Shown: positions 6,294-47,302, counted from the stretch's first letter. The stretch is DNA of 64,000 bases from an uncultured Gammaproteobacteria bacterium (GCA_963712695.1 CAVQJD010000007.1:3221-67220); one strand, 5' to 3'. The notes: generated by a model from the letters alone, not told the origin. A program made the numbers and translations.

Positions 6294-9397
<3,104 letters not shown>

Positions 9398-9741
9398 CGA
9401 TTGGCCAGCACAGCGTGGGTGCAGGTTGATGGACAAGCCTGCACCCGCGCGGGAGTGACTGCAGTATCCTGATAAACAGAGCACCGTGGTGCAGCGCAAA
9501 GAGAGGGCGACTGCACCACGGGGACCGGTCAAAGGCTGTCAGTGGCAATAGGGCCACCGACAGCGCAGGTGGTAACGGCACTGACCCGCAGGGTGCGCTG
9601 TCACGGTACACCGGAAATCAGGGGTGAACCGCCCTGTAAATCCGCAAATGGCCAGTCTTGTATATTGAACCCAGACGACAATCGAAAGTCTTTATGATGA
9701 ACCCGGACAATCTGAACTGAGTCGTTATCGGAAACGTGTAA

Positions 9742-25774: not shown

Positions 25775-26739
25775 ACCTGCGCCTGACTGGCGCCCTCTGC
25801 GCCCTCGTCCTGGGATTCGGCCCGTTGCCGGGTGTACTGGCCGATGCCTTCGGCCTGGCGGCCCGGGTCAACGGCATGGAGATCTCCAGCGAAAAGCTCG
25901 AGAAGAGCTTTGAGGAATACCTGCGCGAGAACAACGTGAACGTGGGCGCCATTCGCTATCCCGATCGATACAAGGCCATGAAGCGGGAGACGCTCGACTT
26001 GCTTATCGACCAGCTACTGCTGTGGCAGGCGGCTCAGGACAGCGACATGGTAGCGACACCTGCAGAAGTCAGCGCCGCGTTCGATGACATGCGTGCCCAG
26101 TTCAAGTCGGCGGAGAACTTTCGCGACCGGCTCGCTGCCGAAGGTTACAGTGAGGACAGTTACCGGGAACACCTCAAGCAGCTGGTCTCGGCCAGCAAGT
26201 ACCTGGAGAGCCTGAGCGGCGACATCGGAGTGAGCGATACGGAAGTACACGACTTCTATACCCGGAACCCGGATAAATTCCAGGTGCCCGAAGTCGTCCG
26301 GGCGCGCCACATCCTGATCAAGCTGGATGCCTCGCACTCCGATGAGGAGCAGCGCGGCAGGCGCAAGCAGATCGAGGACATCCTGGCACAGGCACGCGCG
26401 GGTGCCGACTTCGCCCGGCTCGCCAGCGAGCATTCAGAAGATACCAGCGCCGCCCAGGGCGGTGACCTCGGCTACTTTCCGCGCGGGAGAATGGTAAAAC
26501 CGTTCGAGGACGCCGCGTTCGGTTTGCAGCCGGGCGAGCTGTCCGGGGTAGTGGAAACCCCGTTCGGCCTGCACATCATCAAGCTGGAGGAGCGTCACGC
26601 GCCAACGATACTGCCCGAAGCCGATGCCCGCGAACGGATTACCGGGTATCTCACGGCGCTGAAGCGTGAACAGGCCGTATCCACCGGCATGGAAACGCTG
26701 CGTTCCAGCGCCAAAATTGAAATACTGGTACCGTTATGA
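25771..26739 (+). CDS. Parvulin-type peptidyl-prolyl cis-trans isomerase, a SurA/PpiD/PrsA-like periplasmic chaperone.
   Basis: Signal peptide and a chaperone-like N-domain. The parvulin domain contains ARHILIK, GGDLGYFPRGRMVKPFEDAAF and GVVETPFGLHIIK. The start overlaps the upstream stop by 4 nt. Confidence 0.7.
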   Translation: MNLRLTGALCALVLGFGPLPGVLADAFGLAARVNGMEISSEKLEKSFEEYLRENNVNVGAIRYPDRYKAMKRETLDLLIDQLLLWQAAQDSDMVATPAEVSAAFDDMRAQFKSAENFRDRLAAEGYSEDSYREHLKQLVSASKYLESLSGDIGVSDTEVHDFYTRNPDKFQVPEVVRARHILIKLDASHSDEEQRGRRKQIEDILAQARAGADFARLASEHSEDTSAAQGGDLGYFPRGRMVKPFEDAAFGLQPGELSGVVETPFGLHIIKLEERHAPTILPEADARERITGYLTALKREQAVSTGMETLRSSAKIEILVPL

Positions 26740-28097
26740 AACACCCTGCCGCACGGAGCGTAACCGGATTGCCGAAGCCCTGCTTGCACCCTGCGCACCT
26801 GCCGGTCGCGCTGCTGATGCTGGTCCTGCTGGCGCCAGCGGCCGTGCAGGCGGCTGAGGAGCACCACCATCATCTGCACCCCGAGCCGGTTTCCGCCGCT
26901 GACCCGCACGCGCACCACCGGGCCATGCTCGAGCAGGCACAGCCGGGGCCTGCCACCGCCACCGATGTCACACTGCACAATGCGACGCTGCTGACCCAGA
27001 ACGGCACGCAGGTGCGGTTCGCCAGCGAGGTCATCGCTGACCGCATCGTGGTAATGGACTTCGTCTACACCACCTGTACCACCGTGTGCCCGGTGCTGTC
27101 CGCGGTCTTCGGCCAGGTGCAGGAACGTCTGGGCGACCGGCTCGGACAGGAGGTGTCGCTGGTATCAGTCAGTGTTGACCCCGTTCGCGACACACCGCCA
27201 CGACTCAAGGCCTACGCCGACCGGCACCGCGCACAGGATGGCTGGATCTGGCTCACCGGGGATAAATCGCAGGTGGACCAGGTGCTGACCGGGCTTGGTG
27301 CCTACGCGCCGCGTTTCGAGGACCATCCGGCCATGGTCCTGGTGGGCGATGGACGTTCCGGGACCTGGATCCGTTTCTTCGGCTTCCCGGGCACGGACCA
27401 GATCCTGGCTGCGGTGGATGAACTCTCGGCGGCCCGGCAGGCGTGCCGCCCAACACCTGCAGGAGTAATGCACCATGCGCACGTTTTTCAGCTTGTTTCT
27501 CACTTTCGCCCTGGCCTGGCTAGCGCCTGCCGTGTCCGCAGCACCACGCAGACGACGGGCGGCGCGGCGGCGACACCCGCTGCGCCAACCCAGGCCGACG
27601 CTGACGAGGCCTCGCGTCAGTACTTCACGGACCTGAAGCTGGTCACCCAGGACGGCAAGGATGTGCGCTTCTTCAGCGATGTCCTGCAAGACAGGATCGT
27701 GCTCATCAATTTCATCTTCACCCACTGTGAGGGTGCCTGCCCGCTGATGACCCGCAAGCTCAAATCGAGCCGTGACCTGCTCGACGCACCATTGCGTGCC
27801 AGGGTGCATTTCGTCTCCATCAGCATCGACCCGGAACGTGACACGCCGGCGGCGATGAAGGCATTTGCCACCCAACACGAACTCGCCGACGACAAGAACT
27901 GGCTGTTTCTCACCGGTGATCCGCAAAACGTGAACCAGATCGTCAGGAAGCTCGGCCAGTACACGCCGGACGTCGAGGAGCACTCGACACTGGTGCTGGC
28001 CGGCAATGTCAGGGATCACTACTGGATGAAGATCTCGCCCATGGTGCCGGCGGAGGGTATCGCGGACAAGCTGCGCCTGCTGGCACAGGAGCAGTGA
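26736..28097 (+). CDS. Tandem double SCO1/SenC copper-chaperone protein with a His-rich N-terminal segment.
   Basis: The His-rich stretch is EEHHHHLHPEPVSAADPHAHH. Two Sco-type thioredoxin-fold domains carry CTTVCP...DPVRDTP...GWIWLTG and HCEGACP...DPERDTP...NWLFLTG. It overlaps the upstream gene end, so it sits in the same operon. Confidence 0.7.
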   Translation: MKHPAARSVTGLPKPCLHPAHLPVALLMLVLLAPAAVQAAEEHHHHLHPEPVSAADPHAHHRAMLEQAQPGPATATDVTLHNATLLTQNGTQVRFASEVIADRIVVMDFVYTTCTTVCPVLSAVFGQVQERLGDRLGQEVSLVSVSVDPVRDTPPRLKAYADRHRAQDGWIWLTGDKSQVDQVLTGLGAYAPRFEDHPAMVLVGDGRSGTWIRFFGFPGTDQILAAVDELSAARQACRPTPAGVMHHAHVFQLVSHFRPGLASACRVRSTTQTTGGAAATPAAPTQADADEASRQYFTDLKLVTQDGKDVRFFSDVLQDRIVLINFIFTHCEGACPLMTRKLKSSRDLLDAPLRARVHFVSISIDPERDTPAAMKAFATQHELADDKNWLFLTGDPQNVNQIVRKLGQYTPDVEEHSTLVLAGNVRDHYWMKISPMVPAEGIADKLRLLAQEQ

Positions 28098-29738
28098 GGC
28101 GCATCATCACGGCCAGGCGCCGGACGCGTCCCTGGTCAACGGCTGCGCTGGCCCTGTTGCTCGCCGGCACTGTCGCGGCCACCCCACTCTCGCCCCAGGA
28201 ACAGCGCGGCAAGCAGATCTATATCCACGGCACCAGCGCCGCCGGCACGGCTATCACCGCGCACGTGGGCACGCAGGCGGTTGCATTGCCCGCGAGCGCG
28301 ATACCCTGCGCCAGCTGCCATGGCCCCGACGGACGCGGTCGCCCCGAAGGCGGCGTGAACCCGACCGACATCACCTGGCAGAACCTCACCAAACACTATG
28401 GCCACCGGCACGACTTCGGCCGCCAGCACCCGGCTTTCGACACGGCTTCACTGGCGGCCGCAATCACCCGGGGGATTGATCCGGCCGGCAACCGGCTGGA
28501 TGCGGCCATGCCACTCTACAGCATGGAACCGGACGACCTGGCTGCCCTGATCGCCTATCTGAAGTGCATCGAGACCGACAGCGACCGCGGCCTCTCTGCA
28601 ACAAACATCCGACTGGCCACGCAGCTGCCCCTGTCGGGTCGTCTGGCTGGACTGGGCGAGGCCATGCGTGCGGTCATGCTGGCCTATTTCGCGGAGCTCA
28701 ACGCGGCCGGTGGCATCCACGGCCGCCACCTCGAACTCGTGGTCATCCCGTTCGGCGACTCGCCGCGCACGGCGCTGACCAATCTCGAGCAGGGCCTGGC
28801 CGAACAGGAAATCTTCGCCCTGGTCGGCAGCTACAGCGTAGGCCTGGAAGACGAGACGGCACGGCTGATGGAACAGCAAGCAGCTACCCCTGGTCGGTCC
28901 CTTCACCCTGCAGCCGCAGTCCGGCGAGGGCCTGGACCGCCACACCTTCTATCTGTATCCCGGGCAGGAACAACGGGTGCGGGTACTGGTCGATGTCGCG
29001 GGCGACAGGAAGTCAGCGCGGGCGCCCCGCCTCGCCGTTGCAGGCCCCGACACGCCCACCCTCGCCAGGCTTGGCCAGGTGATCACAGAGCAGGCACGCC
29101 GTCACGGCTGGGACACGGTACAGACTTTCGCTTATCCGCCCGGCCAGCTGGTCCCGGCGCAGCTGGCCGCGGCACTGCAGGATGCAGGGCGTACCGCGCT
29201 GTTTTTCTTCGGCACCAGCGACGAGCTGAATGCCTTGCTCGTCACCCTGGGTGAATCAGACCAGCCACCGGCGGTTTATCTGCTCTCAAGCCTGGCGACG
29301 CCTGCCCTGCTCACCGCCCCGGCGGTGTTCGACCAGCGGATCTTTATTGCCTACCCGACGCTGCCGCGTGACGTAACAGCGCGCGGCCAGCAGGACTACA
29401 ACGCACTCAGGCAGAAATACGATCTGCCCGAGGCACACGTCTCGGGACAGATCGCCGCCTACGCCGCCGCCAGAACGCTCGTGGAAGGCCTGAAACGCGC
29501 CGGCAGGGATCTGAGCAGGCAAGGGCTGGTCAGTGCACTGGAAGGCCTGTACCGTTTCGACACCGGACTCACCCCGCCGCTGACCTACAATGCGAATCGT
29601 CGCATCGGGGCACTGGGTGCCCATGTGGTCGCAGTGCAGCTCGCAGCCGGGGGCTACGCTCCCGGTGGGCGCGTGGCAACCGCTCGATTAGCCGTGCAGG
29701 TGCAGCGCACAACTCCGCTGGTGAGATATACGGGCTAA
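28094..29738 (+). CDS. Cytochrome c domain fused to a LivK-like type-I periplasmic binding protein (branched-chain amino acid binding-protein fold). One apparent frameshift near 28900-29000.
   Basis: The N-terminus has a signal peptide and CASCH haem-binding site with c-type context. PBP-like sequence then follows (LSGRLAGLGEAMRAVMLAYFAELNAAGGIHGRHLELVVIPFGD...) and continues in ORF 28977-29738 (LSSLATPALLTAPAVFDQRIFIAYPTLPRD...). Confidence 0.55.
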
Positions 29739-30680: not shown

Positions 30681-32616
30681 TCATTTTACAGGGCGCGGGG
30701 CTGATCGCGCAGTGGCGGACTTGCGGCGTGCGACGACTGTCATGCCCACCAGGCCGCCGAGGAACAGCCAGACACTTGCGGGCAGCGGCACAGGTGCCGC
30801 TGTAAAGAATAATTGCAGGTCCCATTCAGGGGTGAGCAGCACCTCGAAGTCCAGCCCCAGCCCCGGGTTCAGGTCCGGAAAACTGAAGAAAATATTGTCA
30901 AAGCCGCTCGCATGCTGTGCGAACAGGAAGTCGACATGCTCACCGATGCCGGGCTGGTAGCCATTCAGGCTGAACATGATCTGACTGTTCGGACCGAAGT
31001 CGATGTTGCCCAGGATATTAACGCTGTCGAAGTCGAACAGACCCAGCTCGAAGCTCACGGAGCCGTTAAAGTCGACGTTGCCACCAAAGGTCAGCGTTCC
31101 GAAAATATCGCTCGCATCGCTGGCTGCGCTGTCTCCCGGATTGACACTCGCCGGGGCATCGATCGTTACCGGTTGGGCAGTGGAGGTGATCACGCCTGTG
31201 CCCGTCAGGCTGCCGCCGCTGAGCGTGACCGCCGCCTGGGTGAGACTGCCATCGACCCGCGTGCTGCCTGCACCCTGTGTAAAACTGCCACTGCCGGTGA
31301 CGGCGCCAGTCACGGTCACTTCGAATGCACCGCTGTTAACCAGGCTGCCGGCATTGTTCAGGCTGCCGGCATTGACCAGCACGGCACCCGGGTTATTGGT
31401 CAGCGTGGCGGCGAGGCTGTTCCTCAGCGCGGCACCCGGAGCGCTGATCAGGACCGCGCCGGACTGATTGGTCAGAGTGACATAATTGTTCAGGTCCCGG
31501 TTGTTGACCAGGGAACCTGCATTAGCCAGGGAACCGTAATTGATCAGTGCGCCGTGATTGGTTACCGCGCCCGTGTTGGTCACGGTATCCAGATTCGCCA
31601 GGCTGGCGCCGGCGCTATTGGTGAATGTTCCTGTGTTATCGAAGTGACCGTAATTATTCAGACGCACGCCATTGGTCAGGCTGCCGCCTGACTGGTTGTG
31701 GAGGGTCCCGCCGTTGTACATGCTGTGCGTGATCAGCACGCCGGCATTGGCGAGTGTTCCATAATTGGTCAGGTAACCGCTGCTGGTGAGGCTGCCGCCG
31801 GACTGGTTGGCCAGGGTAGCGCCATCCTCGTTAACCAGCGTGTCACTGCTGGTCAATACGCCACTGTTAGACAGGTTACCGTAGTTGTACAGGCGATAAC
31901 TGTTGGACAGGGTGCCTGCGAACTGATTGATCAGGGTGGCGCCGGCCTCGTTGAAAAAATCGCCGCCGTTATTCAATGCACCCGTGTTGCTGAGGCTGCC
32001 GTAATTAGCTCAGATAGTTGCTGTTCGACAGCGTTGCACCGGACTGGTTGGACAGGTGGCGCCGTACGCGTTAACCAGCTTGACATTGTTAGTCAGCAAA
32101 CCCGCGTTGATCAGTGTGCCGGCATTGGCAAACAGGTAGTTGTTCGTGGTGCTGCCGCCGGTGCCGTTGGTCAGCATGCCTGCCGCCAGGTTATACAATG
32201 CTCCGGTATTTTCCAGCATGCCGTAGTTGCTGAAGGCTCCGCTGTTATTCGTAGTGCCACCGGACTGGTTGTTCAGTGACGCGCCAGCCAGGTTGCCGAG
32301 GTTGCCGGCGTTGTTCAGCAGGCCGGCGTTGTCGAGACTGCCAGTGTTCGCGAGGTCGCCAGTGGTCTGGATGTCGAGCTGACCACTGGCAGTGATCAGG
32401 CACGAAACATTATTGGTATCCAGTGTGCCAAGACTCACCTGACCGGTGATAGGACAATCGAGCTGTGCCTGGACGATCGGACTGACCGAGTACCCCGGCG
32501 CCGAGCGCCAGCGTCAGCCTGATAGCCCGGTCGAGGTGACGAAGCCGAAACACCGGCTGGCAGTGCCGTTTATGGTATTGCTTGTCACTGCTATTGCTGA
32601 ACACGCTGAGATCCAA
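30681..32616 (-). CDS. Large secreted repeat protein of autotransporter-associated beta-strand-repeat type with a C-terminal PEP-CTERM (VPLPA) anchor. It is frameshifted near 32000-32040.
   Basis: Dozens of degenerate 20-aa repeats of the form N-x-G-x-L-x-N-x-G-x-L-x-N-x-x-x (for example NSGALTNYGTLANAGVL). The C-terminus is VPLPASVWLFLGGLVGMTVVARRKSA. The N-terminal pieces are ORFs 32010-32438 and 32410-32616, with signal-like LTLALGAGVLGQS. Confidence 0.5.
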
Positions 32617-32639
32617 CCTGAAACGTCTTGTTATAGTTA

Positions 32640-33762
32640 TCGAGTGGCCTGAACGGTAACCACCCTGCTGTCCGGAGCTTCCGGGTCGGAAGGACAGAGG
32701 ACCTTTATTTATGGTTTATTAATACCCTGAACAAATATTGCATACCCCTCCACTTGACATCAAGACTATTTTTCAGTAATCGATGACGCCCCGCGTCGCC
32801 CGGTGCAGGGTCAAGTCACCTGCAGCGCGGCCTGTTAGCGGGTGGCTGACAGGCGGCGAACGCAACTGCTGTTTTGCCCTGTCCGGCGTAATGGACGGCG
32901 CTGTGACTGATCAGTACCCTCCACTCGCAAGTGCAGCGCCAGTGTGCTTCGTAAAATGTAAATAGCAAAAAGATTATCTATAAACCGCTATTTAATTAAT
33001 TCAGTATCAGGCACCGGCTGATAAGTCGGAAATTCTTACATGCTTAAATTCTGACTTGAATTGTTAGCTACTGATTTTTATGTATTTAACTGAAAATGTC
33101 GTTCGACCTGTCGGTTGAAATGTCACAATTGTTTACAAATCAATTTGCCCGCGCTTCCGTAGAAAATACCATCTCAACTGCAAGAAGCTGATCTAACGAT
33201 AAAAAATATTTCTGGCCTAATATTTGCCTTGATTTAACCAATAATAGCTGTCTCCGAATGGTGACGGTCGAACCTGATTGACTGGACAGATGCAAACTGA
33301 ACAAATAGTTTCGTATTGCTATTCACTGCGTGCGCACAGATTTACTATTTTCAAAATAAATAACAATGGCTTTCATGCGAAATACCGGAACAGGACTGAC
33401 AAAGCTGCCCGTTTTCATGATCAGAACGGGCACACGGGTGTGTCACAAATGACACATCTGTCTGCGATAAACTGCCACATCTGTCAGAATTGTCAGGATT
33501 GACTGTCGGGATGTGGCAACAGGCAACAGAATTTTGACATTAATCGATTTATAACCACTTGTTAACTATGGACTTACTGCGTGACCTAACTAATGACACA
33601 AAATCGGCACTGAAATTGCAGCACGGGTTATATGCGCTACCAGCTGTAAGTTTGTCATAAGCCGGAACGAAACGATGAAAATGAACTAACGATTTATGGT
33701 TGTTTTTTACTGAACTGAAACTTCCAAACGACAACCTCATGTACAGGGGAGAGGAGATTACG
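32640..33762. promoter_or_regulatory. AT-rich non-coding region of ~1.1 kb upstream of the third MCO gene. It holds clustered TGTCA/TGACA motifs and repeated CACATCTGTC elements.
   Basis: No ORF of at least 60 aa fits the local codon bias. GC is far below the flanks. Between 33430 and 33530 it reads gtgtgTCACAAATGACAcatctgtctgcg...ccacatctgtcagaattgtcaggattgactgtcgg. This includes the perfect inverted repeat TGTCA-N4-TGACA and two direct CACATCTGTC copies. Confidence 0.35.
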
Positions 33763-36698
33763 ATGTCAAGAAAAATCAAGAGAGAAGAGTCGCCAGGTGC
33801 AACACCGGCCGGATCGACTGTCACCTTATCAACACACAGGCTCGCGACACCTTTACAGATTGCTGCCGGAATTCTGTTTACATTGACGAGCGCCAGTGCG
33901 TTTGCCGTGGATACAGACGGCGATGGCGTAGACAACAACCTGGATAACTGCATCACCGTTGCGAACGCCGACCAGCGCGATACCAACGGCAATCAGATCG
34001 GCAACGTTTGCGATGCGGACTTCAACGGTGACGGGATAGTTGATGCATTCGACATTCCATTGTTTCGAACGGCCTTTGGTCAAAGCACGTTCCCGAATGA
34101 GGACATGAATGGCGACGGGATCGTCGACGCATTTGATATTCCGCTGTTCAGGGCAGCCTTTGGAAATCCACCGGGGCCGTCCTGTGCCGGTCTGTTCTAC
34201 GGCTGCGTGGCACCGCTCGACCCGCTCGCGATCCCCAAATACGTGTTGCCGCTGGTCATCCCGCCGGCAATGAACCCGGTCGGCGGACCCGGAGGCGCCC
34301 CTGATAACTACGAGATCGCCGTCAAGCAATTCCAGCAGCAGATTCTGCCGGGTGGACACTGGAACGCGGTATCGGCGAAATGCTGCGCGATCCGACAGCT
34401 CTGCGACCTTCCCCGCCACCACCGTGTGGAGCTATGGTCCGGCCGCGGATCCGCTGCCTGACTCCTCGGGCATACCGGGCGGTGCTGTCGGTCTGGCCCC
34501 GGCCCCGAACTCCCAGTACAACTACCCGGCCTATACCATCGAAACCACTAACGGCGGACGGGTACCGGTTGGCAACTATCAACCTAACCCCATCAGCATC
34601 ACCTGGATCAACGGCCTCAAGGAAAACTTCGGCGCGGGACCGAATTTCCTGCCGCACCTGCTGCCGATCGATCAGACCCTGCACTGGGCCAATCCGAAGG
34701 CAGACTGCATCGCCGGCTCGCCGCGCACCGACTGCATGGGTCCTAATCCCGACTATTACACGGGACCGGTCCCGATTGTGGTACACGTCCATGGCGGCCA
34801 CAACAACCCCCAGTCTGACGGCTACACGGAGGCCTGGTACCTGCCCGACCCGACCGGGAGCAACTTCAACTGCACCAATAACCCGGCCGTGGCGGCCAAT
34901 CCGCAGAACCCCAACACCTACGTGTGCGGTGGCAGCCTGATCAACCAGCTCGGCGTCGTCACCAACCCGGCCCCGAATGCGGCAGGCTTTGCCAACTTCA
35001 CCTACGACAATGATCAGCCCTCGACCACTATCTGGTATCACGATCATGCCCTGGGCATGACGCGCAGCAACGTGTACGCGGGCCCGGCCGGCTTCTTCCT
35101 GATCCGGCAGCCGAGTGGCGGTGAGGACGGTCTGGTGGCCGGCGTACTGCCTGGACCGGCCCCGGTCAGAGGCCAGGACGTGCTGTCGCTGAACATTCCG
35201 GGCAATCCGGTCAGAAGCAGCATCCGCGAGATACCGATCGCGGTTCAGGACCGTTCCTTCAATGCGGACGGCTCCCTGTTCTATCCGGCGGACCGGGCCT
35301 TCTTCGAAGGTCTGGGTGACGGCTTTGGTAATATCGAAGGCCAGTACAACGGTAACGCGGCGGCAGGACTGAACGTTGACTTCATCCCCAGCCCGACCTC
35401 CGACATGCCACCGATCTGGAACCCGGAGGCCTTCTTCAACACCATGGTGGTCAATGGTTCGACCTGGCCCGAACTGCAGGTGGCACCGGCGCAATACCGC
35501 TTCCGTCTGCTGAATGGCTGTAACTCCCGCTTCATTAACCTGGCGCTGATTGTCACGGATCCGGTCACGGGTGCGCAGACCACGGTCAACCGCACGGTGT
35601 GGGACGACACCACGGTTCCGCCCACCGCCTCGACGGTACCGGTCAATGAGCTCAGCTTCTTCCAGATCGGTACTGAACAGAGCATCCTGCCACAGGTGGT
35701 CAAGGTGGAAACCGGTGCCGCAACCCAACTGCCGGGTGATGGCACCATTCCGGCTCCTGTGGCTGCACCCGCTCCCCAGCAGGCCCTGCTGATGGGCAAC
35801 GCCGAACGTCCCGACGTGATCGTGGACTTCCGCGGTCTGCCCGACGGTACCGTGGTACGCGTGATCAATACCGGTCCCGACGAGCCGTTTGGCGGTTTCG
35901 ACCCCGCCAGCGTCCCGGCCGATCCGGCTACCACCGGACAGGTGATGCAGTTTGTGGTCAACTCGGCGCTGCTGGGCTCCTCGCCCACCGACGAGCTCCG
36001 CGGCACCGGACGGCACTCTGCAGAACCCGCTTACCCGCGCCACACCGCCGGAGTCTCTGGTGCTGGGCCCGGCTGACAATCCGCTGCCCAACACCCAGAT
36101 CCTGCGCCGACTCGCCCTGCTCGAGGAAGAGTCCGCTCTGGTGTGTGTGACGATCGACGGCGTAACCGGTGAAATCACCCAGGTACCCGGGGATATTCCT
36201 CCCTGTGTGACGCCGGAGGCCGAAGCTTTCGCACCGCTGGCGGCGGTACTGGGCACAGTGAATCAGGGCGGCGTACCGACCGTGCAGCTGTGGTCTGATC
36301 CGATCTCCACCAACCCGGCGCTGGGTGCCACGGAAGCCTGGCAACTCCAGAACTTCTCGGCTGATGCCCATCCCGTCCACCTGCACCTGGTCAAGTTCAA
36401 TGTGCTCGGACGTGAGGCACTGGGTGGCGGACCCTCGGTCGGCGGCGATCCGTTAAATGGGGGTATCAACGCGTGGGAGAACGGCTGGAAAGACGTCGTG
36501 ATTTCCTATCCGGGTGAGGCCACCACAGTCGCCGCTACCTTCGATATCCCGGGCCTTTACGTCTGGCACTGCCATATCGTCGAGCACGAGGACAACGAGA
36601 TGATGGTGCCCTTCTGTGTGGGTAACACGAACTGCGGTGGTCTTCCGCTCCCGGCAGCGGCCACGCAAGCCGCGTTCACCACCGGGCTCACTCCATAA
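33763..36698 (+). pseudogene. CotA/bilirubin-oxidase-type multicopper oxidase carrying the TSP3 plus double dockerin-like module at its N-terminus. Two apparent frameshifts.
   Basis: A GGAGAGGAG RBS and ATG 33763 start the gene, with signal LQIAAGILFTLTSASAFA. Next come DNCITVANADQRDTNGNQIGNVCDADFNGDGIVDAFDIPLFRTAFG...DMNGDGIVDAFDIPLFRAAFGNPPGPSC. The MCO body follows: IPKYVLPLVIPPAMNP, VVHVHGGHNN, TIWYHDHALGMTRSNVYAGPAGFF, HPVHLHLVKFNV and LYVWHCHIVEHEDNEMM. Frame shifts occur near 34400 and 36000. Confidence 0.65.
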
Positions 36699-36728
36699 AC
36701 CAGGGGTAGTTTCTTACCCGCCAATACT

Positions 36729-36756
36729 GGGCCGCCTTCGGGCGGCCCTTTTCTTG
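36729..36756 (+). terminator. Rho-independent terminator after the MCO gene.
   Basis: GGGCCGCC-TTCG-GGCGGCCC followed by TTTTCTTG. Confidence 0.55.
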
Positions 36757-36912
36757 CCAGAGGACGGCTGCGGCTGTTATGTTTTTAAACAGATCAGCAC
36801 ATGTCTGTCCCACGGGCAGTAGAATGGTTGATCATCTCCGCTCCACCGGCAATCCCCGCGGTATCTGCGGTTCAGTACAAACAGAAACACACGTTCGGGA
36901 GAAGACTGCACT

Positions 36913-37677
36913 ATGCGTCTGCACAGACTATCAGCGATGACCGCACTGATCCTGCTCGTCGCAGCCTGCACGGCCGATGAGCCACCCGGCCTGAAACAGG
37001 AAGCCGACCGGATTAACTACAGCCTCGGTCACCAGATCGGGACAGATTTCAAGCGCCAGGGCGTGGCGCTGGACGCTGCCGCCATCGCGCGGGGCATGCA
37101 GGACGCGCTCGGCGAGGCCGAACCCCTGCTGCCGAAGGACGACATGGAGCAGCGCCTGGTGAAGCTGAAAGGACAGATCACCGAAGACATGCAATCCGAG
37201 CAGCTGCAGCGGGTCAAGGCGCGTAAAGAAGTCAATGAGCGCAAGCTCCGCGAGGCCCAGGCGTTCCTCGAGGAGAACGCCAAAAAACCAGGCGTTCAGA
37301 CCCTTTCCAGTGGCCTGCAGTACCGGGTGATCAGCGAGGGCAGCGGCGCCAGGCCAGTGCCCCTGGACCAGGTGAACTTCCATTATACGGGCCGACGAAT
37401 CGACGGGAGTGAATTCGACAATTCCCATGCTGCCGGCAAGCCCAGATCCATCCGCGTAGCGGACATGATTCCGGGCCTCAGGGAGGCCGTGCTGATGATG
37501 CAACCGGGCGCCAGGTGGGAACTCTATATTCCACCTGACCTGGCCTATGGCAGGAGATCTCCGCTCGCCTACCAGGCGGTGATCATTGAACTCGAATTAC
37601 TCTCTGTGGACAGTGATGACAGCAAGTCGACCTCAACTACCACGCCTGAAAGCGTGCAGGATACCCAACAGCCCTGA
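36913..37677 (+). CDS. FKBP-type peptidyl-prolyl isomerase lipoprotein (FkpA/Mip-like). It resembles MofB, the FKBP encoded next to the Leptothrix MCO gene mofA.
   Basis: Lipoprotein signal MRLHRLSAMTALILLVAAC. FKBP domain: GLQYRVISEGSG...VNFHYTGRRIDGSEFDNS...IRVADMIPGLREAVLMMQPGARWELYIPPDLAYG. Confidence 0.75.
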   Translation: MRLHRLSAMTALILLVAACTADEPPGLKQEADRINYSLGHQIGTDFKRQGVALDAAAIARGMQDALGEAEPLLPKDDMEQRLVKLKGQITEDMQSEQLQRVKARKEVNERKLREAQAFLEENAKKPGVQTLSSGLQYRVISEGSGARPVPLDQVNFHYTGRRIDGSEFDNSHAAGKPRSIRVADMIPGLREAVLMMQPGARWELYIPPDLAYGRRSPLAYQAVIIELELLSVDSDDSKSTSTTTPESVQDTQQP

Positions 37678-37762
37678 CGCAGCGGATAGTAGCCTGGCCC
37701 GCACAGGCGTCCTGCATTTTCATACTCATGACCTTAGACCATAACGACAACGGAGAATCCGG

Positions 37763-38833
37763 ATGAAACAGTTATTAATCCTCACCACCGCGCTGCTCAC
37801 CCCCCTGTGTCTGGCTGGCGAGCCTGATCTCGGCACGGATGCGGCCAAGATCAATTACAGTGTCGGCTACCAGATCGGTGGCGACTTCAAACTGCAGGGT
37901 GTCGAGATGCAACCGGACACGGTGATCCGGGGCATCCAGGACGCGCTGTCCGGCGCGCAGCCGCTCATGACAGCCGAGGAGATGAACACCACCATGGGTG
38001 AACTGGGCAAACGCATCGCGGACCAGCGCACCCGGGAAAAGCATCTCGCCAAGACCCGGATCGAGAAGGAAAACATGGACTTCCTGACGGCCAATGCCAA
38101 AAAGGAAGGCGTGGTGACCACCCCCAGCGGACTGCAGTACAAGATCATTGAACCGGGCACGGGCAGGACACCCGGGGCAACGGACACCGTCACGGTCAAT
38201 TACCGCGGCAGCCTGATCGATGGCAAGGAGTTCGACAGCTCGGCCAAGCATGGCAAACCGGCCAGTTTCCGCGTGGACGGGGTCATTGCAGGCTGGAGCG
38301 AGGCCTTGCAGATGATGCAGGAAGGCGCCAAATGGCAACTGTTCATTCCCCACCGACTCGCCTATGGCGAGAAGGGACCGTTGCGCGAGAAGACCCTCAT
38401 CTTCGATGTCGAACTGCTGTCGGTCGATACCCCCGAAATTATGGCGCCAGAGGCGGAAGCCTCCGCAACCGATGCCGCACAGAGCGAAGCGCCAGCCTCG
38501 GTTGAACCTGCGACGCCAGTCGAGCCCGTCGTCGCCACCGGCCGGGACGGACTGACCGCCGCCCGGCGCATACCCGCCATCAGACCGGCAACCGGCACGG
38601 ACTTCAGGTCCGTTGCCGGGCGGTCGATTCAGCCTGTATCCGACCCTGTGGCACAGTTCAGTCCGTCAGATATCACAAGTGAACAAAACAGTCCTTCGCA
38701 ACCTGCCATTCCGCACCTGCGCGCAGCTGTTGCCCGTGCTGTTGCTGGCCGTGCTGCTGCTGGCCGGCTGCGGACCGGACACGGCAGACCGGCCTGCCGT
38801 CGCGGAGGACACCGTAGCGACCGACCTGCTTGA
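37763..38833 (+). CDS. FKBP-type peptidyl-prolyl isomerase (second copy). The 3' end is uncertain, because the ORF tail past about 38560 looks like read-through.
   Basis: Signal peptide. FKBP domain: GLQYKIIEPGTGRTPGATDTVTVNYRGSLIDGKEFDSS...FRVDGVIAGWSEALQMMQEGAKWQLFIPHRLAYGEKG. An Ala/Pro/Glu-rich tail follows, then the sequence becomes implausible, suggesting a missed stop or indel. Confidence 0.65.
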   Translation: MKQLLILTTALLTPLCLAGEPDLGTDAAKINYSVGYQIGGDFKLQGVEMQPDTVIRGIQDALSGAQPLMTAEEMNTTMGELGKRIADQRTREKHLAKTRIEKENMDFLTANAKKEGVVTTPSGLQYKIIEPGTGRTPGATDTVTVNYRGSLIDGKEFDSSAKHGKPASFRVDGVIAGWSEALQMMQEGAKWQLFIPHRLAYGEKGPLREKTLIFDVELLSVDTPEIMAPEAEASATDAAQSEAPASVEPATPVEPVVATGRDGLTAARRIPAIRPATGTDFRSVAGRSIQPVSDPVAQFSPSDITSEQNSPSQPAIPHLRAAVARAVAGRAAAGRLRTGHGRPACRRGGHRSDRPA

Positions 38834-40103
38834 AGCGGCCGGCGAGCACACCCATGCGCATTACGTCTGCCCCATGCATCCGCAGATCGTGCGCGATGAG
38901 GCCGGCACCTGCCCCATCTGCGGCATGAACCTGGTGGAAAAACACCTGGAATTTCCCGTCCCGGAAGAAACCGCTGATCATAAGCACGCGCATTATGTCT
39001 GCCCCATGCACCCGCAGATCGTGCGTGATGAGGCCGGCACCTGCCCCATCTGCGGCATGAACCTGGTGGAAAAACACCTCGAGCCGGCCACGGACGACCG
39101 GCCGCAGGTCACACTGGATGCCTCCGTGGTGCAGAACATGGGGGTGCGTACGACGAAGGTGAAGCGCGGGGTGCTGCAACGCCATATCACCACGCAAGGC
39201 AATGTCGCCTACGACGATGACCGCATCGTTCAGGTGCACGCCAGAACGCCCGGCTGGATCGAAAACCTCAACATCCGCACCGACGGCATAGCGGTCAAGC
39301 GCAAGGATGAACTGGCGCAGTTTTTCTCGCCGCTGATCGTCCAGCTGCAGCTCGAGTACATTACCGCCCTGGAAGAGCTTGACCTGGCCAAGCTGAAATC
39401 CGCCGACCAGACCGAAATCAGTGCCCGGGTGAAGTCGCTGCGCAACAACCTGAGGCTCCTGCATGTCATGGATATGGACATCATGAGCCTCGAGAAATAC
39501 CGCACGGTCAAGAACACGATCCCGATCGTGGCCCCCCGGACCGGCGTGATCACCCAGCTCGGGGTCCGCGAGGGCATGTACGTGGAGCCGGACGACAACA
39601 TGTTCACCATCGTGGATTTCAGCCGCCTGTGGGTGATGGTGGATATCTACGAGCACCAGATGAGCTGGATGAAACCGGGACTCAAGACCACCATCACGGC
39701 ACCGGCCCTGCCTGAGCGGAGCTGGGAAGGCACGCTCGAATTCATCTACCCCGAGGTGGATCCCCTCACACGCACGCTGCGCGCACGGATTGCGGTCGCG
39801 AATCCGGACGGGATCCTGGTGCCGAACATGTTCGTCGAGGTAACGATTGCCAGCGCTCCGAAACAGAATGTGCTGATCGTCCCGCGCGAGGCCGTCATTC
39901 CGACCGGCGAGCGCGAGACGGTGGTCAAGGCACTCGGAAAGGGCCATTTCAAGCCTGTCGAGGTCACCAGCGGCATGTGGGTTGGCCCCGATGTCGAAAT
40001 CCTGTCCGGCCTGCAGGAGAACGACGACGTGGTCGTGTCGGGCCAGTTCCTGATTGATTCGGAATCCAGTCTGCAGGCCGACTTTTCGCGCATGACAGAG
40101 TAA
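38679..40103 (+). CDS. cusB: CusB/CzcB-family RND membrane-fusion lipoprotein with two tandem N-terminal heavy-metal-binding (CPMHP...CPICGM) domains.
   Basis: GTG 38679 with lipoprotein signal [11 protein letters not shown]. Two copies of [33 protein letters not shown]. The MFP body carries biotinyl/lipoyl-like and beta-barrel segments ([16 protein letters not shown]..., [18 protein letters not shown]) and sits immediately upstream of cusA. Confidence 0.7.
38853..39083. repeat. Recent tandem duplication, 2 x 99 bp at a 132-bp period and ~94% identical, encoding the duplicated metal-binding domain of cusB.
   Basis: cacgcgcattatgtctgccccatgcacccgcagatcgtgcgtgatgaggccggcacctgccccatctgcggcatgaacctggtggaaaaacacct is repeated with 6 substitutions. 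Confidence 0.75.
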
Positions 40104-40108
40104 TCAGC

Positions 40109-43100
40109 GTGCCGATTCGACTGATACGCTGGTCCATTGAAAACCGCCTGCTGGTCATCCTGGCCACCCTGGTGCTCACCGGCTGGGGATGGCTGTCGGT
40201 GCTGCAGACACCGCTCGATGCCATTCCGGACCTGTCCGATGTGCAGGTCATCATCCGCACCAGCTACCCGGGCCAGTCCCCGCAGGTCATCGAGGACCAG
40301 GTCACCTACCCGATCACCACCACCATGCTTTCGGTACCGGGGACACGCGTGGTGCGCGGGTATTCGTTCTTTGGCGACTCCTATGTCTATGTCATTTTCG
40401 ATGATGACACCGATCTTTACTGGGCGCGCGCGCGGGTGCTCGAGTACCTCGACCAGGCGGAGGACAGCCTGCCGCCGGGCGTGCGGCCCAAGCTGGGGCC
40501 AGACGCCACCGGTGTCGGCTGGATCTACAGCTATGCCCTGGTGGATCAGGCGCGGAAACCACGATCTGGCGCAGCTACGCAGCATGCAGGACTGGTTCCT
40601 GAAATTCGAACTCCAGGCCGTGCCGGGCGTGGCCGAGGTGGCGACGGTTGGTGGCATGGTGCGCCAGTACCAGGTGGTGGTGAATCCCGAAAAACTCAGG
40701 GCCTACGGCATTCCCCTGACCCGCGTGGCCGAAGCCATTCGCAGGGCCAATCGGGAAACGGGTGGCTCCGTGAGTCGAAATGGCGGAATCGGAATACATG
40801 GTGCGCACCCGGGGCTATATTCAGTCGCTCGAGGATATCGAACACATACCGCTCGAGCAGACCGACAAGGGTATCCCGGTGCTGTTACGGGACATCGCGC
40901 ATATACAGGTCGGTCCGGAAATGCGCCGGGTGGTGGCCGACCTGGATGGCGAAGGGGAAGTTACCGGCGGCATCGTGGTCATGCGCCATGGCGAGAATGC
41001 CCTGCAGACCATCGCCGCGGTCAAGGAAAAACTGCGGGAACTCCAGAGCGGCCTGCCGGAAGGCGTCGAGATCGTCACGACCTACGATCGCTCGGAACTG
41101 ATCCTGAGAGCGGTGGACAACCTCACTGAAAAGCTCGTCGAGGAATTCATCGTGGTCGCGCTGGTGTGCCTGGTGTTCCTGTTCCACCTGCGCTCCGCCT
41201 TTGTTGCCGTCGTCACCCTGCCACTGGGCATCCTGATCTCGTTCATCATCATGAAACAGGCGGGGATCAATGCCAATATCATGTCCCTCGGCGGTATCGC
41301 CATTGCGATCGGCGCCATGGTCGATGCTGCGATCGTCATGATCGAGAACGCCCACAAACACCTGGAAAAAGCCGGCCCGGACCTGACCGGCAAACAGCGC
41401 TGGGAGACCATCACCCGGGCCGCACAGGAGGTCGGACCGGCCCTGTTTCTATTCACTGCTCATCATCACCCTGAGTTTCGTTCCCGTGTTCACGCTGGAG
41501 GCACAGGAGGGCCGGCTGTTTGCGCCGCTCGCGTTCACCAAGACATTTGCCATGGCCGCATCGGCCGGGCTCGCGGTTACGCTGGTGCCGGTGCTGATGG
41601 GTTATTTCATTCGCGGACGCATTCCCGGAGAGTCCGTCAATCCGCTCAGCCAGTTGCTGATCTGGCTGTACCGGCCTGCACTGAAGCGGGTGCTGGACGC
41701 GCCCGGAAATGACCGTGCTGCTGTCGATTGTCGTGGTCCTGAGCCTGCTGATTCCGCTGTACGGCATCAGCGGTTTCCTGGCGCCGCTCAAGTGGCCCCT
41801 GCAACTGGTACAGCTGGCAGAACCGTCATTCGCGGCCGGTGCCATCACCGCAATCGAGGACAGTCAGGAACGACTTGCCGTGGGCTGGCAGGCATGTTCC
41901 GCGACATTCCCTGGCTGGCGAGCCTCGGACAGGGACTGGGCTCCGAATTCATGCCGGAACTGTTCGAGGGCGACCTCATGTACATGCCCACCACGCTGCC
42001 CGGCATCTCCATCGGCAAGGCGCGCGAACTGTTGCAGCAGACCGACCGGCTGATCAGCCAGACACCGGAGGTCAAGCGGGTGTTCGGCAAGATCGGCCGG
42101 GCCGATACAGCCACCGATCCCGGCTCCGCTCACCATGATCGAAACACTGATTCAGCTCAAGCCGCGGGATGCAATGGCGACCCGGCATGACGGTAGAAAA
42201 ACTGATGGCGGAACTCGATGACAGAATCAGCTTCCCGGCACTGACCGATGCCTGGGTCATGCCGATCAAGACACGTATCGATATGCTGGCAACGGGTATC
42301 AAGACGCCCGTCGGGGTGAAAATCTCCGGGCCTGACGTCTACGAAATCGAGCGCATCGGCAAACAGCTCGAGAAAATCCTGATGCAGGTGCCGGGCACCC
42401 GGTCGGCCTATTCCGAGCGCGTCGCCGGCGGACGCTACATCGAAATTATCCCGCGGCGGCTGGAGGCGGCAAGACTGGGGCTCAATGTCGATGATATCAA
42501 TGACATCGTCAGCGCGGCAGTGGGCGGCATCAATGTCACGCAAACGGTAGAGGGACGCGAACGCTACACCGTGAACCTGCGCTTTCCGAGGGAACAGCGC
42601 GACGACGTGAAAAAACTCCAGCAACTGCCCCTGGTCACGACGAGCGGCGCCCAGGTGCCCCTGTCGCAGGTCGCCGAGGTGAAGGTGGTGGATGGACCAC
42701 CGATGCTGAGAAGCGAGAATGCACGCCTCAATGGCTGGGTGTTCGTGGATATCCGCGATGTCGATCTCGGCAGTTATGTCAACCGCGCCCGCGATACTGT
42801 GCTCGAGCAGATGGACTTGCCGCCGGGCTATTCCATTGCCTGGTCAGGACAATATGAGTACATGCTGCGGGCACAACAGAAACTGCGCCAGGTGGTCCCC
42901 CTGACCCTGATCATCATCTTCGTGCTGCTCTACCTGGCACTGCGCTCTGCCGGCGAGGCCACGCTGGTCATGCTGTCTTTGCCCTTCGCGCTGGTGGGCG
43001 GTTTCTGGTTCCTGCTGTTTCTCGACTATAACCTGTCGGTCGCGGTAGCTGTCGGGTTTATCGCCCTGGCCGGTGTAGCGGCGGAATTCGGCGTGGTGAT

Positions 43101-43462
43101 GCTGGTCTATCTCGATAATGCACTCGACACGCACCGTCGCCAGGGAGGCACAGCTCAGCGACAGTGCACTGCGCGAGGCCATCATGGAAGGTGCCGTGCT
43201 CAGGGTGCGCCCCAAGGCCATGACCGTGGCGGTTATCATCGCCGGCCTGCTGCCGATCATGCTGAGTGAGGGAACCGGGTCGGAAGTGATGCAGCGCATT
43301 GCGGCGCCCATGATCGGCGGCATGGTCACCGCACCGCTGCTGTCCATGTTCGTCATTCCGGCGGTGTATTACCTGCAGCAACGACGCAGCACTGAACAAG
43401 TCCTGAACACTAGCCCGCTTCAATCCCCTGCCTGCTTCTTGCCGGTAATCAGCCCCGTGTAA
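40109..43462 (+). pseudogene. cusA: CusA/CzcA-family heavy-metal RND efflux pump. The frame is broken about 6 times, by sequence error or pseudogenisation.
   Basis: The N-terminus [49 protein letters not shown] is typical of CusA. Homology continues through ORFs 40137, 40780, 41166/41486, 42169 and 43118. The C-terminus is [27 protein letters not shown]. Confidence 0.7.
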
Positions 43463-44183
43463 TCGTCCGCGGGCTGCAGCTTTCTCGTACTCTGCCGGAA
43501 CGCGGAAGTATATCCCGGGGCACTATGTCGTGGGAAACCGACTTGAGTATGAAGGTCGGTTCGCCCTCCGCGGGACGGCTTCGAATCGTTATAAACTGCT
43601 CATCCGACTGGATGGCAATCCAGTCCGGATCGGTCCTCTGCCGGGAAAACTCGATCAGGCGGGCCATGCTGATGAGTTCACGCGGCGTCATTCCCAGGGC
43701 GTACGCATCTACCAGGCAGTGTTCGGCCAGCAGTTTGTCATCGCGCATTTCCCTGACCACCCTGCAGCTGATCCCCGCCACCGTGTTCTTTTCTGTTGTC
43801 GGTGACAAAATGTTCTTTGGCGGTGATTTTGCAGCAGCCTGCCCCGCTGCAGCAGGGGCCGGCGCAGCAGCGCTCTCCGCCTTGGGCGCTGCAGCAGGGA
43901 GCCGCGTGCCACCCTGATGATGGGGTGAATCCCCGAAGGTGGTGAAAGTCTGCTTTTCGCCGTTGACAACGTTCATGTACAGGAATCCGCCATCCAGCAG
44001 CAGGAAATTTTCCGGTGCCTCGGTGCTCTTGTCCACCCGCAAGAAGCGGCCACGAATACTGTAGGTCTGCTGGGTTGCCTGACCCGCGGCGTCGACCAGA
44101 TCGTAAACCAGGGTGGTATCGGCGTGAACGGAAAGGGACAGGAAGGCGGCGACGGCAGATACGATACTCAGGCGTGTTTTCAT
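43449..44183 (-). CDS. Hypothetical secreted or periplasmic protein.
   Basis: ORF with signal peptide [21 protein letters not shown] and an Ala/Pro-rich linker. No recognisable motif. Confidence 0.4.
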
Positions 44184-44373: not shown

Positions 44374-45066
44374 ATGAAGAATACAGGACTAATCGCCATC
44401 GCCGCCCTGCCGCTGCTCTGCGGCCTCTGCTACGCGGACGAACAGCCAAAATTTACCGACGAGGATGACAAGATCAATTACATCATCGGCTACCGGCTCG
44501 GTGGGGATTTCAAACGCCAGGATCTGACAATCAGAAAAGAGATGGTAGTCAAAGGGCTGGAGGATGCCGTATCCGGCACAACCCCGCTCCTGACCCAGGA
44601 AGAGATGCGCACGGTGCTGATGAACCTGCAACAACGGGTTGCCGCGGAAAAACAAGCCAAGCTGGATGAACTGCAGGCAGCAAACCTCAAGGCCGCAGAG
44701 GCCTTCCTGGCGGAAAACACCGGCAAGGACGGCGTGCAGACCCTGCCAAGCGGATTGCAGTACAAAGTTCTGGCGGAAGGTTCCGGCGACAGCCCGCAGA
44801 AAACCGACAAGGTCACGGTCAATTATCGTGGCACCCTGATCGACGGGACCGAATTCGACAGCTCCTACAGCCGCAACCAGCCAGCCACATTCGGCGTCAG
44901 CCAGGTCATTGCCGGCTGGACGGAGGCGCTGCAGCTGATGCATCCGGGTGACAAGTGGCAGCTGTTCATTCCGCCGAAGCTCGCCTACGGTGAGCGCGGT
45001 CAAGGCGCCAAGATACCCCCGAACAGTGCACTCATCTTCGAGGTCGAGCTGCTCAGCATCAACTGA
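44374..45066 (+). CDS. FKBP-type peptidyl-prolyl isomerase (third copy, FkpA/Mip-like).
   Basis: An AGGAGA RBS precedes ATG 44374, with signal IAIAALPLLCGLCYA. FKBP domain: GLQYKVLAEGSGDSPQKTDKVTVNYRGTLIDGTEFDSS...VIAGWTEALQLMHPGDKWQLFIPPKLAYGERG. Confidence 0.7.
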   Translation: MKNTGLIAIAALPLLCGLCYADEQPKFTDEDDKINYIIGYRLGGDFKRQDLTIRKEMVVKGLEDAVSGTTPLLTQEEMRTVLMNLQQRVAAEKQAKLDELQAANLKAAEAFLAENTGKDGVQTLPSGLQYKVLAEGSGDSPQKTDKVTVNYRGTLIDGTEFDSSYSRNQPATFGVSQVIAGWTEALQLMHPGDKWQLFIPPKLAYGERGQGAKIPPNSALIFEVELLSIN

Positions 45067-45657: not shown

Positions 45658-45681
45658 CCCTCCGGACAGCCATTAACACAG

Positions 45682-45711
45682 CCCCGCAGCGAATCTGCGG
45701 GGCTTTTCTTT
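45682..45711 (+). terminator. Rho-independent terminator after cspA.
   Basis: CCCCGCAG-CGAATC-TGCGGGG followed by CTTTTCTTT. Confidence 0.7.
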
Positions 45712-46128: not shown

Positions 46129-47302
46129 ATGCTAGACGGATTACTGGATTTATCTTTCCAGGGTTACATCGGCGCCACCCTGCTGCTAACCCATATCACC
46201 ATCGCCAGCGTCACCATTTTCCTGCATCGTCACCAGGCGCATAACGCGCTCACCCTGCACCCGTCTGTGAGTCACTTTTTTCGTGGCTGGCTGTGGCTGA
46301 CAACCGGCATGGTCACCCGGGAATGGGTGGCCGTGCATCGCAAGCATCACGCCAAATGCGAAACTGTGGACGATCCACACAGTCCCCAGGTCAGAGGCAT
46401 CCTGCAGGTCCTGTTCGGTGGCGTCGGCCTGTACAGAACTGCCGTGCGCGACCAGGAAACGCTTGATCACTACGGCAACGGCACGCCCGATGACTGGCTG
46501 GAGCGTCACGTGTACAGCCGCTCGCCACTTACGGGCATCCTGATTATGGGTGCCATCGACGTGCTGCTGTTCGGCGTGGCCGGACTGATTATTTTCACGG
46601 TGCAGATGCTGTGGATTCCGCTCTGGGCCGCCGGCGTCATCAACGGCCTGGGTCATTTCTGGGGCTATCGCAACTTCGAAACCACGGATGCCTCGCGCAA
46701 CCTGTCCCCGGTCGGCATCCTGATAGGTGGCGAAGAGCTGCACAACAATCACCATGCGTACCCGCAATCGGCCCGGCTCTCCAATAAATGGTGGGAGTTC
46801 GATATCGGCTGGCTGTACATCAGGATCCTGGCAGTGCTGGGTCTGGCGCGCGTGCGTCGCATCGCCCAAAGTACGGTTAGAGCGCGGCAAGCAGGTAGTC
46901 GACCTGGAAACACTGCGGGCTGTCCTGCGCGACCGCTACCACGTGCTCACACTCTATGGCCGCAAGGTCATCCGGCCGGTCGTACGCAATGAACGGCGTG
47001 CCAGCGACGGTGCCGGACGCAGACTGCTGCGCCAGGTACACAAGCTGATGACCCGTGAAGATATCGCGCCGGACGCAACAGCACGTGCCACCCTCAACGA
47101 CGTGCTGCAAAAAAGCCAGGCCCTTGCCACGGTGTACCGCTTCAAGTCGCAACTCAAGGCATTGTGGGCCCACACCGCCAGCGACGGTGCCGGTCGGGTC
47201 GAACGCCTGGAGGCCTGGTGCAACGAGGCCGAGCGCTCCGGCATCAAGGCGCTGCAGGACTTTGCCAATGTCCTGCGCAGCTACACACTGCAGACTGCCT
47301 GA
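46129..47302 (+). CDS. Membrane delta-9-type acyl-lipid/acyl-CoA fatty acid desaturase with a C-terminal extension. One apparent frameshift near 46875.
   Basis: Three His boxes: HRHQAH, HRKHH and HNNHH, with hydrophobic spans between them. ORF 46727-47302 continues the protein after the shift. Confidence 0.65.

Follow-up and report, generated by a model that had tools for sequence, protein, structure and literature searches.

We have analysed a 64,000-nt stretch of DNA from an uncultured Gammaproteobacteria bacterium (GCA_963712695.1 CAVQJD010000007.1:3221-67220), referred to here as the window, in which a gene for a large multicopper oxidase (MCO) resembling the CotA laccase is followed on the plus strand by two genes for FKBP-type prolyl isomerases (FKBP1 and FKBP2) and by cusB and cusA, after which come hyp244, on the minus strand, and a third isomerase gene, FKBP3, again on the plus strand (Table 1). 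Gene domains were assigned by Pfam, and related contigs or loci are labelled L001, L003 and so forth. The gene calls and coordinates of the original prediction proved right, since Pfam domains, copper motifs, structure matches and the methionine triad of a CusA ortholog all agree, and this includes the two FKBP genes and cusB-cusA downstream of the MCO as well as the third FKBP gene beyond them. Scans of the window with Rfam and for tRNAs returned no non-coding RNA or tRNA.

The oxidase had been described as a CotA-like MCO with an N-terminal dockerin, and indeed it carries Cu-oxidase_3 and Cu-oxidase_2 domains together with an N-terminal TSP_3 and Dockerin_1 module, with CotA among its best solved matches. 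All four copper motifs are present (HVHGGH, WYHDH, HPVHLH and HCHIVEHEDNEMM, where HxHG, HxH, HxxHxH and HCHxxxHxxxxM are expected) and they are invariant across a 28-sequence alignment of the MCO family. The nearest solved structures are copper or multicopper oxidases and CotA laccases (E ~1e-44 to 1e-47), the top matches 7z5p, 8z5b and 9bd5 being other copper/multicopper oxidases and spore coat protein A. No NCBIfam equivalog cut-off is reached by the MCO, the CueO model scoring 86 bits against a cut-off of 525, and methionine makes up about 1% of the protein with no Met-rich segment. Many bacterial MCOs, CueO for instance, are exported in the folded state through the Tat system, but a twin-arginine (Tat) motif is found in 0 of the 28 aligned family members, and wherever the N-terminus is complete, the leader is of the usual Sec type. 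The family contains 7-12% proline and 6-16 cysteines, with 11.2% and 16, respectively, in the window MCO, while the mean proline content of the window genes is 6.7%.

The TSP3 and dockerin-like module of about 100 aa is not confined to the MCO but tags at least six secreted proteins of the window, C-terminally in five and N-terminally in the MCO, and in L001 an S8 peptidase and a SPOR protein bear it as well. The module resembles a common tag for sorting or for anchoring at the surface; no cohesin-like partner for it was identified. In L014, L016 and L018 the MCO matches extend over 5-9 kb, which suggests that MCO genes are repeated in tandem before the FKBP-cusB unit. When a plasmid database was searched for annotated relatives, only distant actinobacterial and haloarchaeal MCOs were returned.

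Each of the three FKBPs consists of an FKBP_N and an FKBP_C domain, and the two that were searched, FKBP1 and FKBP2, align over their full length to Legionella Mip (1FD9) and Escherichia coli FkpA (1Q6U) with E-values of 1e-54 to 1e-27. All three remain under the NCBIfam cut-offs for FkpA and FklB. FKBP2 (37763-38520; 104 bits) and FKBP3 (125 bits) do exceed the cut-off of 100 for the NCBIfam BamJ family, but the match is mainly over the shared FKBP domain and is probably a domain-level hit rather than evidence for a BAM role. That the FKBPs are lipoproteins, as had been proposed, holds for FKBP1, which has a canonical lipobox (VAAC; pattern [LVI][ASTVI][GAS]C at the end of a signal peptide, signal peptides being judged by eye), but not for its orthologs in L084 and L001, in which the lipobox is lacking. 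FKBP2 (TPLC) and FKBP3 (PLLC, CGLC) do not fit the pattern either and look like signal-peptidase-I substrates. A SlyD-like role as metallochaperones was considered and rejected, because the C-terminal tails of the FKBPs, which are acidic and of low complexity, have no His, Met or Cys.

CusB combines two HMBD domains with a CusB barrel-sandwich domain. The CusA ortholog of L001 scores 1340 bits against E. coli CusA (3K07) and 523 against ZneA, and Met573, Met623 and Met672 of the methionine triad are all aligned in it, and CusA is on these grounds assigned as a Cu(I)/Ag(I)-type RND pump. Neither an outer membrane efflux protein (OEP, cusC) nor a cusF gene is found within 33.7-45.7 kb, and an OEP fragment present elsewhere is part of another RND cluster, on the minus strand at 51-56 kb.

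Table 1. Features of the MCO-FKBP-cusBA locus and its surroundings, with positions counted from the first nucleotide of the window
Feature	Position	Strand	Remarks
CotA-like multicopper oxidase (MCO)	33763-36698	+	~974 aa with frames joined; Sec-type signal peptide, four copper motifs
TSP3 + dockerin-like calcium-repeat module, MCO N-terminus	33829-34383	+	TSP_3 36.5 bits, Dockerin_1 25 bits
Intrinsic-terminator-like hairpin and T-tract	36729-36755	+	31 nt past MCO stop
Promoter-like site, extended -10	36754-36783	+	immediately past terminator-like hairpin
FKBP1, Mip/FkpA-type	36913-37677	+	lipobox VAAC; FKBP_N + FKBP_C; remodelled pocket (predicted)
FKBP2 open reading frame, Mip/FkpA-type	37763-38833	+	short 80s loop, W59 kept; homology only to ~38512
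cusB, membrane-fusion protein	38679-40103	+	lipobox LAGC, two HMBD metal-binding domains
cusA, Cu(I)/Ag(I)-type RND pump (assigned)	40109-43462	+	~9 single-base insertions break frame
hyp244, conserved secreted hypothetical protein	43449-44183	-	C...EHC motif
FKBP3, canonical Mip/FkpA-type	44374-45066	+	full 80s loop, W59
Terminator-like hairpin downstream of FKBP3	45680-45704	+	
Upstream accessory cluster	23824-29738	+	beta-propeller, YtkA-like, SurA-like parvulin, SCO1/SenC, MofC-like gene
SurA-like parvulin	25771-26739	+	
Double SCO1/SenC protein	26736-28097	+	
Cytochrome c + periplasmic-binding-protein gene, MofC-like architecture	28094-29738	+	frame-broken
TSP3 + dockerin-like module sites	1838-2647, 5671-6060, 9041-9394, 19525-19845, 22850-23464, 33829-34383		

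Conservation of the oxidase-isomerase pairing

Two sets of loci were compared, namely the 80 best genome matches to the MCO (at least 38% identity), in which an FKBP was counted if FkpA-like and within 1.5 kb, and a reverse set of 80 metagenome loci fetched by FKBP similarity alone, while FKBP clades were taken from a neighbour-joining tree. An FKBP accompanies the MCO in 19 of the 80 MCO-selected loci, always on the same strand, 13 times downstream and 6 times upstream, and the linked fraction is 13/19 among loci with an MCO identity of at least 44% as against 6/61 below. The carriers comprise Gammaproteobacteria, Desulfuromonadales, other Deltaproteobacteria, Nitrospirota and one Bryobacterales metagenome-assembled genome (MAG). 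In the tree, the MCO-adjoining FKBPs group in clades of their own, and in the main one of these an MCO is found in 36 of the 37 informative leaves, including 10 of the 11 informative loci that had been selected by FKBP. The exact gene order of the window from MCO to FKBP3 recurs with every gene intact in L167, a 653-kb MAG contig, and the order MCO-FKBP-FKBP-CusB is found in L084 and in L001 (72% MCO identity), the latter with FKBP3 nearby. A cusB gene follows the FKBP only in Gammaproteobacteria, whereas the deltaproteobacterial and Nitrospirota loci keep the MCO-FKBP pair without cusBA, and since the FKBP thus stays with the MCO where the pump is absent, the pair is the conserved core and cusBA a lineage-specific addition.

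Given these synteny counts in both the MCO-selected and the FKBP-selected set, the arrangement is far beyond chance, and the notion of a functional tie between the MCO and the FKBP isomerases, which the original prediction had put forward, is well supported by a same-strand adjacency conserved across several phyla and by the separate FKBP clades. Adjacency could nonetheless arise without partnership if the FKBPs hitch-hike in a mobile or co-transferred cassette and serve other clients. The module does occur in distant phyla, which implies horizontal spread, transposase and integrase remnants are found near it in the window and in L165, and the order and number of FKBP genes differ among loci. 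However, the same-strand adjacency survives many rearrangements, with an FKBP upstream in the 6 loci and downstream in the 13 and with one to three copies, and retention through such reshuffling is a classic signature of selection for linkage; we therefore regard hitch-hiking as very improbable.

The FKBPs of the module fall into three types, all of which retain D37 and Y82. The FKBP3 type has a canonical pocket (Y26, F36, D37, W59, Y82, F99) and a full 80s loop, whereas five residues of this loop are missing in the FKBP2 type (GPLA-- for GxGxKIPPNS), which retains W59. The 80s loop of the window FKBP1 is likewise shorter by 5 residues and is accompanied by W59L, F99I and F46R, and across relatives the FKBP1 type has L, I, M or F in place of W59 and I or V in place of F99. 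In Gammaproteobacteria an FKBP1-type protein is always the copy encoded beside the MCO. The changes in FKBP1 and FKBP2 are predicted to remodel the pocket, which does not amount to a proof of lost activity. Among the FKBP-selected metagenome loci an MCO is found with 10 of 22 short-loop FKBPs and with 3 of 55 long-loop ones. The short 80s loop as a mark unique to MCO-linked FKBPs had to be rejected, since a separate short-loop clade lies beside carboxyltransferase, aldehyde dehydrogenase and other housekeeping genes.

Transcription signals and integrity of the reading frames

The MCO had been described as followed directly by the FKBPs within a single MCO-FKBP-cusBA operon. FKBP1 is indeed the next gene, on the same strand and 214 nt past the MCO stop, a feature of the mof type discussed below, but the spacer holds both a terminator-like hairpin and a promoter-like site. 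The hairpin (GGGCCGCC-TTCG-GGCGGCCC, then TTTTCTT) has a folding energy of -19.9 kcal/mol (z = -3.7), and all 13 loci in which the MCO precedes the FKBP have a comparable GC-rich hairpin with a T-tract, 20-55 nt past the stop codon of the MCO. The promoter-like site consists of TTGCCA, overlapping the hairpin, an 18-nt spacer and TGnTATGTT in the window. Among the window, L167, L084 and L001 there is no variation in the hairpin, the TTGCCA, TGnTATNTT or their 18-nt distance, while the remainder of the spacer has diverged. No terminator-like hairpin occurs between the last FKBP gene and cusB in 10 of 11 gammaproteobacterial loci. Because terminator and promoter are conserved after the MCO and a terminator is lacking between the FKBPs and cusB, two transcription units are predicted, [MCO] and [FKBP1-FKBP2-cusB-cusA], although some read-through may occur, and the idea of one operon is not supported, given the hairpin and the extended -10 promoter-like site between the MCO and FKBP1.

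Upstream of the MCO lies an AT-rich, non-coding region of 1.3 kb (32440-33760). It contains a cluster of TGTCA/TGACA half-sites, especially at 33441-33510 (TGTCACAAATGACA, and CACATCTGTC twice), and TGACAATCATGTCA is found upstream of the MCO ortholog in L001 (position 9580). These half-sites resemble CusR/CopR copper boxes and are at most putative sites of this kind.

As sequenced in the window, the MCO is distributed over three reading frames, with breaks near 34400 and 36010, and cusA is found in about seven pieces. In JGI contig L003 (99% DNA identity; protein P0001) the MCO is intact, and the 95% identical contig L166 encodes an intact CusA of 1096 aa. Compared with L166 over 6 kb from cusA to hyp244, the window has 11 single-base insertions, none of them in a homopolymer, and one 2-nt deletion, whereas the first break site of the MCO is a mixture of small insertions and deletions. 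The insertions of the cusA region are found at about 40548, 40774, 41445, 41701, 41891, 42118, 42171, 43150, 43389, 43481 and 43512, and the breaks cluster by gene, with about nine in cusA and other long open reading frames (ORFs) untouched. Since relatives of 95-99% identity are intact, the frame breaks are probably assembly errors. The FKBP2 ORF continues to 38833 and overlaps cusB, and because homology to its orthologs stops at ~38512-38515, its tail beyond ~38512 is probably read-through after an indel.

The breaks could also be genuine, in which case the MCO and cusA would be pseudogenes in this strain and the locus a relic without current function. The reading frame is interrupted twice in the MCO and about nine times in cusA, which would fit such decay, as would the lost stop codon of FKBP2 and an altered C-terminus of hyp244. 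The differences from intact relatives are however almost all single-base insertions at non-homopolymer sites, substitution divergence from these relatives is only 1-5%, and frame breaks also occur in other long genes of the window, at ~28.9 kb in the mofC-like gene and in the RND gene of the second cluster (minus strand, 51.1-54.2 kb). Furthermore, L001 and L002, two assemblies of one relative's locus, differ by the same kind of fragmentation. The overall pattern suits assembly error better, and decay seems to us hardly probable.

A possible maturation neighbourhood and its known counterparts

The reading that we favour, with a probability of roughly 0.55, is that genes serving the maturation of a large extracellular CotA-like MCO, exported via Sec, form a conserved neighbourhood here, with help from FKBPs and copper control by CusBA. 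The MCO would cross the inner membrane unfolded via Sec and would have to fold in the periplasm, where three cupredoxin domains with ~11% proline and 16 cysteines would be formed and four copper atoms taken up. A Sec-exported, three-cupredoxin MCO of 90-100 kDa would thus depend on periplasmic folding, disulfides and four coppers, which makes a need for isomerase or chaperone help, as well as for close regulation of Cu(I), plausible, and the Mip/FkpA-type FKBP chaperone-isomerases encoded alongside may provide the former. In the gammaproteobacterial lineage the FKBP genes would be joined with cusBA in one transcription unit, driven by a sigma-70-type extended -10 promoter, next to a separate MCO unit ending at a conserved intrinsic terminator, and the CusBA pump may control periplasmic Cu(I) while the MCO is loaded with copper. 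The action of the FKBPs on the MCO, a role of CusBA for it and the substrate of the oxidase are in this scheme what we infer, while the identities of the genes, their synteny, the FKBP clades, the conservation of terminator and promoter and the type of signal peptide are what was observed.

Several points weigh against this reading. Among the 19 closest MCO loci there are six in which an FKBP is missing from the surrounding 1.5 kb (one flank is lacking in three of these), and the short 80s loop is not exclusive, as another short-loop clade adjoins carboxyltransferase genes. The conserved terminator implies that co-expression of the two is not guaranteed, and the part assigned to CusBA in maturation is purely conjectural. 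In addition, MCO and cusA are not intact as sequenced in the window, and if the insertions were real the module would be decaying in this strain. A stronger version, in which Mip-like FKBPs of a dedicated lineage inherited together with the oxidase, with a short 80s loop and in one paralog a rebuilt pocket, are an obligate maturation factor of a widespread family of Sec-exported, extracellular CotA-like MCOs and the co-transcribed CusBA delivers or buffers Cu(I) for metallation instead of detoxification, strikes us as doubtful, although it would, if true, describe a specific periplasmic 'oxidase assembly line'.

The locus might alternatively be a copper-homeostasis island, with the MCO as a CueO/PcoA-like cuprous oxidase of the periplasm or the surface, CusBA exporting Cu(I) and the FKBPs as general envelope-stress chaperones that are co-induced by copper and have no specific action on the oxidase. 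The Met triad marking CusA as a true Cu(I)/Ag(I)-type pump and the two metal-binding HMBD domains of CusB are in agreement with this notion, as are the predicted co-transcription of the FKBPs with cusBA and not with the MCO, the presence of SCO1 and YtkA-like copper-handling genes nearby and the half-sites upstream of the MCO, if these are indeed CusR/CopR boxes. The MCO itself is however CotA-like and not CueO-like by its score against the CueO model, it has no Met-rich segment, and it bears a dockerin/TSP3 surface module. Furthermore, MCO-FKBP pairs persist in lineages without cusBA nearby, and dedicated FKBP clades co-occurring with an MCO are not expected of generic stress chaperones. An island of this kind is possible but in our view unlikely.

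The maturation neighbourhood has its closest known counterpart in the mofA-mofB-mofC operon of Leptothrix discophora (Brouwers et al. 2000, as summarised in PMC5566968 and PMC8218464). The comparison drawn in the original prediction is factually sound, since MofB is an FKBP/Mip-type isomerase adjoining MofA, for the folding of which a role has been proposed but never tested (PMC5566968; PMC8218464), and MofC combines a cytochrome c with a periplasmic-binding protein (PMC5566968). In the literature searched, an MCO together with a prolyl isomerase is mentioned only for mofA-mofB and related clusters of Fe oxidisers. The window shares with mof and with the ompB/mofA-like clusters of Fe(II) oxidisers a secreted MCO with an FKBP/Mip-type isomerase gene beside it, and a gene of MofC architecture and a SCO1/SenC copper chaperone nearby, the chaperone role being one proposed from sequence only. 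It differs in that its MCO comes from a CotA-like family of 750-1000 aa, that it has two or three FKBP paralogs where mof has one, that cusBA is fused to the FKBP unit, that the mofC-like and SCO1 genes belong to a separate cluster, found 4-7 kb upstream beyond two genes of the opposite strand, and that a conserved terminator and promoter part the MCO from the FKBPs. Leptothrix, Ferriphaselus and Gallionellaceae are not represented among the 80 best genome loci (at least 38% identity), which argues, though only indirectly, against a close relation of the window MCO to MofA. The mofA-mofB principle is accordingly known, and what differs here is the CotA-like MCO clade, the dedicated FKBP clades, the fused CusBA and the terminator-promoter junction.

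Other known systems resemble single parts of the locus. In E. coli, CueO and CusCFBA likewise combine an MCO with a CusBA pump of the Cu(I) type, with the CusA Met triad, for the same compartment, but there the genes are not linked, and CueO leaves the cytoplasm through Tat and has a Met-rich insert, whereas the window MCO is Sec-exported, CotA-like and dockerin-tagged. Unlike CusCFBA, the window has no adjacent cusC or cusF, and HMBD domains are found at the N-terminus of its CusB. Legionella Mip and E. coli FkpA have the same FKBP_N dimerisation and FKBP_C domains, a signal peptide, and D37 and Y82, but the window FKBP1 and FKBP2 fall 5 residues short of them in the 80s loop, with W59L, F99I and F46R as further differences in FKBP1. 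Bacillus subtilis CotA laccase (1GSK) matches the MCO with E 2.7e-44 and shares the four copper motifs and the axial Met, but the window MCO is ~300-450 residues longer, has a Sec leader, bears a calcium-repeat module at its N-terminus and undergoes Gram-negative export.

The never-tested idea that a periplasmic FKBP folds a metal-oxidising MCO goes back to the description of mofB in 2000. Far from being peculiar to Leptothrix, the pairing is a conserved multi-phylum module with FKBP clades of its own and a defined transcription architecture, to which one lineage has joined a copper pump, and intact, cloneable gene sets exist, for example in GCA_041395565.1. If the proposed partnership is true, it would explain the difficulty of expressing large bacterial MCOs in active form, and it would offer helper genes for the production of laccase-like enzymes and for studies of Mn, Fe and Cu oxidation in sediments and symbionts.

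Upstream cluster and other neighbouring genes

The plus strand holds a second cluster, 4-10 kb before the MCO. The mofC-like gene in it, 4 kb upstream of the MCO and beyond two minus-strand genes, is absent from most related loci, and only in scattered relatives (L008, L020, L061 and L077) do SCO1, mofC-like or parvulin genes travel with the MCO. Accessory functions of the mof type are therefore all present in the window but split between clusters. The parvulin, which had been counted with the FKBPs as part of one locus, is SurA-like and belongs to this separate cluster, and its link to the MCO is only suggestive; one Bryobacterales locus does have MauG-like, parvulin, FKBP and MCO genes in a row.

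Downstream of cusA, hyp244 encodes invariant Cys and His-Cys residues and is always divergent to an FKBP3-type gene and adjoining cusA (relatives L164-L168, including L167, as well as L001, L006 and L018). A database of 5.8 billion proteins yielded only 19 homologs, the closest named one being from Thiogranum sp., and an AF2 model (pLDDT 72) shows weak resemblance to the half-barrels of LolA and RseB. Further downstream of FKBP3 an ISL3-family transposase fragment is found at 46727-47302, and L165, a 95% identical relative, has a phage-type integrase (779-1306) on the equivalent side, which may be a sign of a mobile or variable region next to the module.

The window furthermore contains a second, unrelated MCO at ~6900-9400 (~25% identity), which has a C-terminal dockerin-like module, is possibly frame-broken and is followed by a SCO1/SenC-cytochrome c fusion gene at 9742-10845, with no FKBP adjoining it. 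The product of 44-2680 is a MauG/MbnH-like di-haem peroxidase of 878 aa with fused TSP3 repeats, and MauG-like genes are also found near the MCO in L042 and L061.

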